NCBI GenBank assembly: GCA_044226015.1
Contig: JBGAHS010000006.1
Coordinates: 224,001-288,000, forward strand
Origin: Candidatus Obscuribacteraceae bacterium
GTDB taxonomy: Bacteria > Cyanobacteriota > Vampirovibrionia > Obscuribacterales > Obscuribacteraceae
Reading direction: 5' to 3'
Length of the DNA: 64,000 bases
Both the position numbers and the translations under genes were made by a program. The notes under the pieces were generated by a model. The model was not told the origin of the DNA and made no database searches. It was given only the letters and a program-made list of their open reading frames with translations. Shown here one piece after another: positions 60,620-63,100 of the stretch; position 1 is the first letter of the stretch, and each line of letters starts with the position of its first letter.

Positions 60620-61840
60620 CTAACCGGAGAGTGCCTCACTTACTCTGGCAGCTCCCGAAAAGACGTCGCTCACTGAGGTTGAATCATCGAGCATCAGATC
60701 AACACGTTCCAAAATCTTCCCAAAAACTTCGCGTAAATTCCTCTGATTCTGTCCTGCAATTTGTGCCCACATCTCGGGCTGGCTCTTCATCAAGCGACTA
60801 AGCCCCATCAAGGCTCCGCCAGAAAGGCATAACAAGTCCCGATCACCTTGTTCAATCATTTCCTGCTCAATCAATTCTCCAAGCGCACTTGCAAAAAGTT
60901 GAATTGAATGACTGGTAAGTGCGACGGTGCGATCGTGCGCGGCAGCACTGGTAATGAATACTCTTAGATCAAGCTTGCCAAACCAGCTTTTCAATCTTGC
61001 AATTGAAATTTCAGATGACTTGCTTGTTGGAACCAGACAAATCGTCTTGCCGGCAACCGTAACTTCGTCAGAATTTTCAAATCCACGTTTTTCGGTTCCA
61101 AAGAATGGATGCGCGCCAATGAATTCAGCTCCGTTGAGCTCAAGATTCTCGGCTAGATTACAAATCTCAGTTTTTGTTGAACAGAGATCAATAACTAGTT
61201 GACCTGGGCTCAAGTGAGGTGCAAGCTGCTTCAACATACTAATACTCACATCCGGAGGGCATGCAAGCACTATGAGAGATGAATTAGCAATCGAGTGTTC
61301 TGTGATTTCGGCGGCACACTCATCAAATATTTTGCTTTCAATCAATCGCGAAAGAGTTTCTTTTTGATCAATAGCCGATATCGAAGTTCCAGGAAGAATA
61401 GACTTAACCTGGCGAGCAAAAGCCCCGCCAATCAGCCCTGTTCCGACAACACAAATACTAGGAAACAATCGTTCAGATCGCGTCTTGTTTTCCTCGCATG
61501 CATTTGCTAGCTGTTGGAAATCAGCACTCTCTTTCATGATCGATTTGAAAATCCTAAGAACAAATTCCTTGCTGCTTCTTTGCGAAAGAGCACGGGAAAC
61601 ATTTTCAAGCACTATTTGTTCTCTAGTTCCATCATGAACCTGCCGCCCCATCGCGGCTTTGGTCCTTCCTATCTCAAGGCTGAGATCAAAGCGTTTTGCA
61701 AGAAGCGCAATAATCTGTTCATCGAGCGTATCGATGCCCTCACGGAGAGCATCAATTCTATTCTGGTCAATATTTGCTGCAGAATTGCAGCCGTCTTCAA
61801 TTAATTGCCCCTGGCGGGGCCAGTTCTTCGACAAAGACAT
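60620..61840 (-). CDS. tyrA: Chorismate mutase - prephenate dehydrogenase fusion
   Basis: LRE.ID.LD.QI..LL.KR....IG..K CM domain; VVGTGLIGG, D..STK, GAHP.FG.E..G, HD..VA.TSH. Confidence 0.88.
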   Translation of the reverse strand: MSLSKNWPRQGQLIEDGCNSAANIDQNRIDALREGIDTLDEQIIALLAKRFDLSLEIGRTKAAMGRQVHDGTREQIVLENVSRALSQRSSKEFVLRIFKSIMKESADFQQLANACEENKTRSERLFPSICVVGTGLIGGAFARQVKSILPGTSISAIDQKETLSRLIESKIFDECAAEITEHSIANSSLIVLACPPDVSISMLKQLAPHLSPGQLVIDLCSTKTEICNLAENLELNGAEFIGAHPFFGTEKRGFENSDEVTVAGKTICLVPTSKSSEISIARLKSWFGKLDLRVFITSAAAHDRTVALTSHSIQLFASALGELIEQEMIEQGDRDLLCLSGGALMGLSRLMKSQPEMWAQIAGQNQRNLREVFGKILERVDLMLDDSTSVSDVFSGAARVSEALSG

Positions 61841-61857: not shown

Positions 61858-62751
61858 TTATACGCAGGCTGCGCGATGATTGCGATCGATTCCAGGTGCG
61901 AAGCTTGTCTCGCGAACAACATGCACAGGAGCTTGCACTCTGCGTCCAACTGCGGCTGCGACCGGACGTAGGCTTTCAATGAGTTGAACCATTGCTTCAA
62001 GTGAAAGAGCTTGACGTGCATCAGATACTGATTTCTCTGGCTCGGGATGGCATTCGATCATCAGTCCATCAGCACCACACGCGACAGCGGCTCTGGAGAG
62101 GTCTGCAATCAATTCATGTTTTCCAGCGGCGTGGCTGGGGTCAACAATCACTGGAAGATGCGTTAGCTGCTTCAAAGCTACAACAGCGCCGAGGTCAAGA
62201 ACATTTCTAGTGAACGTATCGAAGCTTCTGATTCCGCGCTCACACAGAATAACCTGATGATTTCCGTGTGCCATAATGTATTCAGCAGCCATGATGAATT
62301 CTTCAATCGTCGCTGAAAGCCCACGCTTCAGTACAACAGGCTTGTTGCATTTGCCGACAGCCTTAAGGAGATCGAAATTCTGCATATTGCGGCTGCCTAT
62401 CTGCAGGACATCAGAATGATTGCAAACGTCTTCAATTTGTGACTCTGTCATCACTTCGGTAATTGTGGGAATCGCGAAGCGCTCAGTAATATCGGCGAGA
62501 ATCTTCAGTCCATCAAGACCCATTCCCTGGAAGGAGTATGGGGAAGTGCGAGGTTTGAAAGCGCCACCACGAATTGCTTGAACCGGACCATGCTTTAGAG
62601 TCTGGGCGACGAGGTCCATTTGTTCTTTGCTTTCGATTGTGCAAGGACCACCAACGATGAAGATATCAGTGCCTCCCACTTCGAAATTGCCGACCTTAAC
62701 GGTGCTCTTGACCATGCCTTCGTTCTTCAAAACTAATTTAGCGTCTTTCAT
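61858..62751 (-). CDS. aroF: 3-deoxy-7-phosphoheptulonate (DAHP) synthase, type I-beta
   Basis: GPCTIES, RGGAFKPRTSPYSFQG, QIGSRNMQNF, LKRG, CERGIR, DPSH; RBS GGAGG. Confidence 0.93.
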   Translation of the reverse strand: MKDAKLVLKNEGMVKSTVKVGNFEVGGTDIFIVGGPCTIESKEQMDLVAQTLKHGPVQAIRGGAFKPRTSPYSFQGMGLDGLKILADITERFAIPTITEVMTESQIEDVCNHSDVLQIGSRNMQNFDLLKAVGKCNKPVVLKRGLSATIEEFIMAAEYIMAHGNHQVILCERGIRSFDTFTRNVLDLGAVVALKQLTHLPVIVDPSHAAGKHELIADLSRAAVACGADGLMIECHPEPEKSVSDARQALSLEAMVQLIESLRPVAAAVGRRVQAPVHVVRETSFAPGIDRNHRAACV

Positions 62752-62769
62752 TGTTCCTCCAGATGTATT

Positions 62770-62816
62770 AAAAGAAAAATCCCGAACCCTTCCATTTCTT
62801 GGGGGAGTTCGGGACT
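62770..62816 (-). terminator. Attenuator terminator 2 (proximal to aroF)
   Basis: Minus strand TCCCGAACTCCCCC...GAAGGGTTCGGGA followed by TTTTTCTTTT. Confidence 0.85.
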
Positions 62817-62844
62817 TTGTAGTGGTGATTTGGACACGACTATG

Positions 62845-62898
62845 TCACCCGGGGCTCCCCCTGGTTGCGTAAACATAGCTGTAATACCAATTTCTCAC
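62845..62898 (-). CDS. Attenuator leader peptide 2: MRNWYYSYVYATRGSPG
   Basis: GTG AGA AAT TGG TAT TAC AGC TAT GTT TAC ... TGA; 4 Tyr + 1 Trp; AAGG upstream; its 3' end GGGGGAG is complementary to CTCCCCC in terminator 2. Confidence 0.8.
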   Translation of the reverse strand: MRNWYYSYVYATRGSPG

Positions 62899-62927
62899 TT
62901 TGCTCGACCTTTGATGAATTTGCCCTC

Positions 62928-62960
62928 AAAACGAAAAGACCGCAGAAACTATCTGCGGTC
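62928..62960 (-). terminator. Attenuator terminator 1
   Basis: Minus strand GACCGCAGA-tagtt-TCTGCGGTC-TTTTCGTTTT. Confidence 0.88.
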
Positions 62961-62995
62961 CACCTTTGCTAATCTCGCTCGCGTCACTACGCGGC

Positions 62996-63046
62996 TCAGC
63001 TAAGGTGAACCTCCATTTGCCAGTAATAGTAGTACGCGCGTTTCAA
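62996..63046 (-). CDS. Attenuator leader peptide 1: MKRAYYYYWQMEVHLS
   Basis: RBS AGGAG, TTG AAA CGC GCG TAC TAC TAT TAC TGG ... TGA; GGTTCACCTT pairs with AAGGTGGACC, which overlaps the 5' arm of terminator 1. Confidence 0.85.
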   Translation of the reverse strand: MKRAYYYYWQMEVHLS

Positions 63047-63071
63047 GGGAAAACTCCTAACAACTCCAGTC

Positions 63072-63100
63072 ATCCTATACCTAACTCCCTATGCCGTCAA
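63072..63100 (-). promoter_or_regulatory. Sigma70-type promoter of the leader-aroF-tyrA transcript
   Basis: Minus strand TTGACG (63100-63095), 17 bp spacer, TAGGAT (63077-63072). Confidence 0.75.

Follow-up and report, generated by a model that had tools for sequence, protein, structure and literature searches.

The window, i.e., the whole stretch of 64,000 nucleotides analysed here, carries on its minus strand the genes aroF and tyrA, preceded by two short leader open reading frames (ORFs) that are each followed by a predicted intrinsic terminator. aroF (61858..62751, SD GGAGG at 62756-62760) codes for a class I-beta DAHP synthase of 297 amino acids, and tyrA (60620..61840), located 17 nt 3′ of aroF, codes for a chorismate mutase-prephenate dehydrogenase fusion of 406 amino acids. 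Because AroF matches its family profile (PRK08673, 338 positions long) only from position 68, up to position 337, the enzyme lacks the N-terminal regulatory domain. DAHP synthases devoid of this domain generally escape feedback.

All the parts listed in a preliminary description of this DNA, from the promoter to aroF, are present on the minus strand and in the order given there, and each leader does contain four Tyr codons and one Trp codon. The most upstream of them is a sigma-70-type promoter-like site, TTGACG-17-TAGGAT (63072..63100). Taken alone, this match is not above chance (one found versus 2.5 expected); in relatives, promoter-like patterns are found 5′ of leader 1 at 79/83 loci, compared with 3/83 for the interval between terminator 1 and aroF and 4/83 for a shorter control of 100 nt. 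An SD-like AGGAG (63054..63058) lies 7 nt 5′ of the TTG start of leader ORF 1 (62996..63046; hereafter type A), which comprises 16 codons with a sensor run of four Tyr codons and one Trp codon at codons 5-9, and whose frame and start are kept in relatives. According to folding and alignment, the 3′ half of leader 1 harbors the 5′ arm of antiterminator 1 (63002..63011), the 3′ arm of which (62957..62966) shares its last 5 nt with the base of terminator 1 (62927..62961), a predicted hairpin with a U tract also recovered by a terminator scan. Leader ORF 2 (62845..62898; type B) has 17 codons, a GTG start and one Trp and four Tyr codons at codons 4-10. In correction of the earlier description, neither leader starts with ATG, and leader 2 has only a weak SD. 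Its 3′ end contains the 5′ arm of antiterminator 2 (62848..62861), and the 3′ arm (62801..62813) is at the same time the 5′ arm of the predicted terminator 2 (62768..62818), again a hairpin with a U tract. The pairing GGGGGAG/CTCCCCC initially reported for antiterminator 2 is present and longer than stated, the additional CGGG/CCCG being the portion that is conserved in relatives.

Folding of both modules, a check that had been suggested, indicated that terminators and antiterminators fold well relative to shuffled sequences: −17.9 kcal/mol (z −4.4) for terminator 1, −23.3 kcal/mol (z −3.8) for terminator 2, which a simple terminator scan missed, −31.1 kcal/mol (z −4.7) for antiterminator 1 and −26.7 kcal/mol (z −2.2) for antiterminator 2. 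In the 8.2-Mb genome, 3448 U-tailed hairpins were counted, and at only eight distinct sites is such a hairpin preceded at a distance of at most 75 nt by a short ORF with at least five aromatic codons in eight. The leader pair of aroF-tyrA is the only such pair within 300 nt in the whole genome. A genome scan for other single-amino-acid leaders returned mostly noise. Searches against Rfam gave no relevant match, neither a riboswitch nor a T-box model, and a single chance match (E 0.8) elsewhere in the region.

The closest named relatives belong to Candidatus Obscuribacterales and to oxygenic cyanobacteria such as Laspinema and Leptolyngbyaceae. A covariance model built on module 1, i.e., type A, was searched in three genome sets. 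It found matches in 61 of 85 Obscuribacterales genomes, in 51 of the 141 genomes related to the cyanobacterium Laspinema and in 26 of 151 genomes from a phylum-wide sample, where the matches extend to nine families besides that of the window; no match was obtained in a small-genome family belonging to the same class (57 genomes). Across all loci, training rows included, 97 distinct type-A modules were collected, 91 of which precede a short aroF. A second aromatic leader accompanies 86 of these 91 modules, and a second U-tailed hairpin is found as well in 71. In the cyanobacterial loci, for which the best 30 of the 51 matches were inspected (28 of them new), a type-B module is present in all 27 with aroF in view. 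The twin arrangement is not obligatory, since five of the 91 aroF-linked modules lack a second leader (one of these is itself the second member of an A+A pair), and several Phe-type copies have a degenerate-looking terminator 2. Among 32 genomes covered by both searches, short aroF and the module occur together in 23, both are missing in seven, and each is found alone once; the long aroF encoded elsewhere in the source genome has no aromatic leader. In a quick AroF tree with many open forks, the short AroFs associated with the element cluster, and all 29 rows from cyanobacteria fall into a single clade (SH-aLRT 99), from which no donor or direction is claimed.

Several loci depart from the common layout. 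Two type-A modules stand in tandem in L026 (G008), the cyanobacterial record L039 has type B alone, and in L144 (G078) single type-A modules precede both aroF and trpE-trpG within 7.5 kb. Listed jointly were two divergent short-aroF copies with Trp-bearing leaders (L115 in G012 and L116 in G009) and one leaderless short aroF located directly 3′ of trpA (L022 in G030). A further type-A module (L139/L209, G033:C175:536-650) has no aroF behind it and lies in a region where both strands carry shikimate-pathway-like ORFs.

Comparison of the regions 5′ of aroF in relatives, likewise proposed beforehand, revealed conserved aromatic codons and covarying stems in both modules. In the type-A alignment (44 sequences), 95.7% of the antiterminator cells are paired, and 8 of 11 pairs show two-sided changes; for the terminator, 94.3% of the cells are paired, and 6 of 10 pairs show such changes. 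The covariation score was reached by none of 500 shuffles, and slid controls gave 27-60%. In the type-B alignment (70 distinct rows), which was fitted to the terminator only, the corresponding values are 82.0% and 8 of 10 pairs for the antiterminator, and 92.8% and 4 of 6 pairs for the terminator. As kin are not independent, the covariation figures, like the correlations given below, overstate significance. In most cases, the pairing of a leader with the terminator arm of the same module is stronger than that with the arms of other modules (39/44 for type A; 21/27 for type B, a count that leaves out two rows without a detected terminator), and parts of A and B do not cross-pair (about −10 versus −17 kcal/mol). 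No match to module 2 was obtained with the type-A model, in keeping with the earlier claim that a recent duplication does not account for the two modules. That module 2 is homologous to module 1 was also considered and rejected: the model misses the type-B leader, and an ancient duplication is not supported. A and B appear to be separate designs that share their geometry: in both types, the aromatic run mostly ends seven codons before the stop. The presence of two serial leader-peptide attenuators is supported, inasmuch as frame, codon class, spacing and compensatory pairing are conserved in both putative modules.

A coding signal is apparent in the 94 anchored type-A modules (three others, the window's own among them, are unanchored). 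The eight codons before the arm include on average 5.4 aromatic codons in the leader frame versus 1.9 and 1.8 in the other frames, and an open start codon is found in the leader frame in 89 of 94 modules versus 21 and 6; rows L020, L028, L148, L186 and L188, for which the automatic ORF pick is wrong, were kept in the counts. Most relatives use ATG as the start codon (81/89 A and 67/86 B leaders), Phe, Tyr and Trp interchange freely, and synonymous codons are mixed (TAT 98, TAC 78, TTT 224, TTC 40). The SDs of the leaders are weak, the median anti-SD pairing being −2.2 and −4.0 kcal/mol, whereas that of aroF is about −7.7 kcal/mol. These weak SDs and the U-rich aromatic stretch are what one would expect if the element were a switch made of RNA only, either riboswitch-like or bound by a protein as with TRAP or PyrR. 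The stretch would then act as an RNA motif, and the ORFs would have no role of their own. Such a switch is extremely improbable, given that start and aromatic codons are confined to one frame, third positions vary synonymously, the distance of seven codons to the stop recurs in two unrelated module types, and no Rfam family matches. The motif TTNTTT is a NusG-type pause motif. It was also considered and set aside: it occurs in 62 of 94 aromatic stretches, but this follows from the Phe and Tyr codons, and it is absent from the Tyr-rich locus in the window. In relatives, assembled contigs from three RNA runs cover leader and aroF, one of them spanning both leaders into aroF; for the Laspinema locus, only assembled RNA contigs with small word shares were found. 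Since these contigs show no ends, strand or level, they are not used as support.

Taken together, the region is best read, with good confidence, as two structurally unrelated leader-peptide modules in series that likely act as ribosome-mediated transcription attenuators before aroF-tyrA. Each module combines an ORF rich in cognate codons, a predicted intrinsic terminator and a mutually exclusive antiterminator that overlaps the leader, and we infer that the mechanism is classical ribosome-mediated attenuation. A ribosome that has moved past the aromatic run would cover the 5′ arm of the antiterminator, allowing the terminator to form. A ribosome stalled by a lack of charged tRNA-Tyr or tRNA-Trp would leave this arm free, and the antiterminator could then capture the base of the terminator before the terminator 3′ arm is made, so that RNA polymerase would read through. 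The spacing fits this scheme if a footprint of 12-15 nt is assumed, as a stall at the sensor codons frees the arm and a ribosome at the stop codon covers it; with a 12-nt footprint, a stall at the last aromatic position (−2) of type A does not free the arm.

At equilibrium, the terminator is favored wherever the ribosome is placed (about 0.78 for module 1 and 0.99 for module 2). Hence, equilibrium folding of whole modules, which was tried and discarded, shows no switching; only nascent snapshots do. The greater stability of the terminator implies that the switch has to be kinetic. In nascent-RNA folding of 94 type-A modules, the antiterminator is kept as long as the ribosome has not moved beyond the aromatic run and then drops from 0.98 to at most 0.07, and in 25 type-B modules it drops from 0.88 to 0.05 once the run is passed. 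In nascent transcripts still lacking the terminator 3′ arm, it is lost within one to three codons after the run. The models thus predict a kinetic switch adjusted to the point where the sensor run ends. In nascent folding, the antiterminator also forms when no ribosome is present (mean 0.97 for 94 A and 0.88 for 25 B modules). The classical leaders trpL, pheL and hisL are single modules that have a 1:2 anti-antiterminator or pause hairpin and terminate when untranslated. In contrast with the four-segment layout of trpL, no 1:2 anti-antiterminator or pause hairpin is predicted in either A or B modules, and two modules are stacked. Since the folding predicts no conserved anti-antiterminator, read-through would be the default of an untranslated leader; the second module may plug this leak and square the response.

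The preliminary description assigned Tyr/Trp sensing to the element. This holds for the paralog in the window and not for the family as a whole, in which leaders read Phe, Tyr and Trp. The second short aroF of the source genome (L118, G000:C10:282000-287000, minus strand) has twin leaders with 11 Phe, no Tyr and no Trp codons and a degenerate second terminator, and is followed by a stand-alone chorismate mutase gene and a P-II gene. Two copies were compared in 14 genomes. In 12 of these, one copy is richer in Tyr and the other is dominated by Phe, a split that corresponds to about three lineages, includes one mixed Tyr copy and is based on automatic picks, some of them incomplete; the remaining two pair a Trp-less with a Trp-bearing copy. 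Where one copy was examined, all three amino acids occur in 35 of 41 loci, again by automatic and partly incomplete picks. Duplicated aroF copies would in this way divide Tyr, Phe and Trp by recoding both leaders. The idea that a Tyr leader implies tyrA was discarded, as leader composition and tyrA presence follow only a loose trend (Tyr share of 0.41 with chorismate mutase and prephenate dehydrogenase, 0.45 with chorismate mutase only, 0.17 with neither and 0.27 in cyanobacteria).

When the module moves, its codons follow the target, with Trp before trpE and Phe, Gln, Glu and His before a tRNA-Phe/Gln/Glu/His array. The array is preceded directly by a single type-A module with promoter, antiterminator and terminator in two genomes (L141:245-1006, G064:C4; and L143, G065:C4, minus strand). 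It consists of Phe-GAA, Gln-TTG, Gln-CTG, Glu-TTC, His-GTG and Glu-CTC, Gln-TTG not being called in L143, and the leaders of both genomes contain the run QEQQFH, i.e., codons read by the tRNAs of the array. This copy offers strong circumstantial support for sensing through translation. Before the trpE gene of the source genome (L133, G000:C7 near 767145-767223, minus strand) lie one short ORF rich in Trp codons and a terminator whose stem base is that of type A (model E 0.3); here, the antiterminator is not the best predicted fold. At another locus (L159, G022:C20, minus strand), a complete Tyr-rich twin module stands directly before genes for a PvcA/DIT1-type isonitrile synthase, a TauD dioxygenase and an FAD monooxygenase; this pathway would consume Tyr.

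The same observations bear on the idea that the leaders are arrest peptides or general sensors of translation speed, through TnaC-like sensing of a free aromatic amino acid within the exit tunnel or through any slow decoding, rather than sensors of uncharged tRNA. Some positions are indeed biased, e.g., Trp at position −3 in 63 of the 94 type-A modules, and the C-terminal residues look conserved. However, the bases concerned are read in another frame in L028, L141 and L143, which is why the C-terminal conservation appears to reflect RNA pairing. Moreover, the free interchange of Phe, Tyr and Trp, and a composition that tracks the downstream target down to non-aromatic codons before the tRNA array, speak against this explanation and make it very unlikely, although a tunnel effect of the aromatic residues may still contribute.

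If the two modules gate in series, transcription would reach aroF-tyrA only if ribosomes slow down at the Tyr/Trp codons in each of the two leaders, and overall read-through would be the product of two escape probabilities. Serial gating requires that both leaders contain an amino acid for this amino acid to induce. Trp is found in both (56) or neither (16) of the leaders in 72 of 73 distinct pairs, the only exception being a mis-anchored row, and the Trp-less pairs fall in several separate branches of the AroF tree. The Tyr fractions of leaders 1 and 2 are correlated (Spearman 0.76), as are their Phe fractions (0.72), with p values overstated by kinship. Leader composition thus seems to change jointly, as serial gating requires. 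Both modules might also attenuate without multiplying, with one of them dominating, the first timing or pausing the polymerase, or the second serving an internal promoter. Loci with a single module (L023/L037, L024, L043, L144; type B only in L039) and the degenerate terminator 2 of several Phe-type copies point in that direction. Nevertheless, we regard non-multiplying control as unlikely: sensor codons, spacing and covarying folds are kept in both modules, their compositions change together, the spacer varies from 27 to 223 nt, as fits independent units, and a promoter-like pattern between terminator 1 and aroF at only 3/83 loci speaks against a second promoter. Serial gating remains the preferred reading, and the multiplied or sharpened repression initially proposed may be its outcome.

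The attenuator of aroR-aroF in Corynebacterium glutamicum was reportedly studied by Neshat et al. in 2014. Like the element described here, it combines a Phe/Tyr leader peptide, a DAHP synthase operon and ribosome stalling; unlike it, and as far as the available portion of the source goes, it is a single module with the codons Phe-Tyr-Phe and responds to Phe and not to Tyr (PMC11802643). Compared by description, the present element has two unrelated serial modules with 4-7 aromatic codons each and belongs to Cyanobacteriota. With E. coli trpL, pheL and hisL it shares a short ORF of cognate codons and an antiterminator exclusive with an intrinsic terminator, according to the accessible text of two sources (PMC11802643, PMC2659441). 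Single attenuators are also predicted before aroF or aroF-tyrA in Shewanella and Vibrio, in the available parts of PMC2659441 and PMC1173090. In Acholeplasma, the motif uORFC-13-1 precedes aroF and comprises a terminator and a predicted uORF containing Phe codons; it appears in the available text as a single module in another phylum, with no tandem (PMC8632094). Aromatic-rich short ORFs before DAHP synthase genes were also noticed in unrelated taxa (L045, L048, L054, L063, L072, L083, L097 and L103), by record name archaea, Acholeplasmataceae, Desulfomonilaceae, Gemmatimonadota and Acidaminococcaceae, some of them with a terminator.

Tandem T-boxes consist of two sensor-terminator units in series. 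Serial units and compounded control are likewise known from tandem riboswitches such as B. clausii metE (cited in the accessible part of PMC3641672); in riboswitches and T-boxes the RNA senses the ligand or the tRNA directly, whereas here the ribosome is the inferred sensor. The earlier view that leader attenuators are single modules, and tandems mainly a feature of riboswitches and T-boxes, needs to be amended for the mgtCBR leader of Salmonella, whose tandem attenuators are termed a singular example by the authors in the available portion of their paper (PMC3641672). There, two short ORFs (mgtM and mgtP) each lie in an attenuator of the same leader; ATP and proline are sensed additively and, according to that portion, the leader differs from tandem riboswitches in not having two intrinsic terminators (PMC3641672). 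In the element described here, by comparison, a separate terminator belongs to each module, and the codons of both specify the same amino acids. In a survey of premature terminators, tandem terminators are reported only for the rimP leader, and cyanobacteria are never mentioned in its accessible text (PMC2965389); nothing relevant appears in that of PMC7997468. Our literature search found no description of the twin aroF element and no such control by amino acid leaders for Cyanobacteriota; subscription papers and supplements were outside its scope, and a listing elsewhere is possible.

Lastly, as AroF has no regulatory domain, codon sensing likely stands in for allosteric feedback. The broader interpretation, held tentatively and with slightly less than even confidence, is that of an undescribed, programmable two-stage ribosome gate in Cyanobacteriota. 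Its unrelated serial scaffolds would be recoded in concert, would replace allosteric feedback on a regulator-less DAHP synthase, and would split Tyr, Phe and Trp among paralogs like the isozymes of E. coli. Retargeting to trpE, the isonitrile cluster and the tRNA array would occur through the codons, and, where transcription and translation are loosely coupled, stacking would offset the read-through expected by default. Leader peptides that sense amino acids normally occur singly, and a conserved serial pair with two intrinsic terminators and the same signal would amount to a natural AND gate based on ribosome stalling; concerted recoding in paralogs and the codon match to the tRNA array suggest a re-programmable module. 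The element is testable, as named Laspinema strain records carry it, and it bears on cyanobacterial control of entry into the shikimate pathway, which is relevant to Phe and Tyr production strains. The primary study of runaway transcription reportedly lists Cyanobacteria. In B. subtilis, an uncoupling of transcription and translation has been reported, a condition predicted to be widespread, according to the available portions of two sources (PMC7858274, PMC10931766). If the proposed gate is real, its leaders would provide a direct test of transcription-translation coupling in cyanobacteria and would bear on whether cyanobacterial ribosomes keep pace with RNA polymerase.
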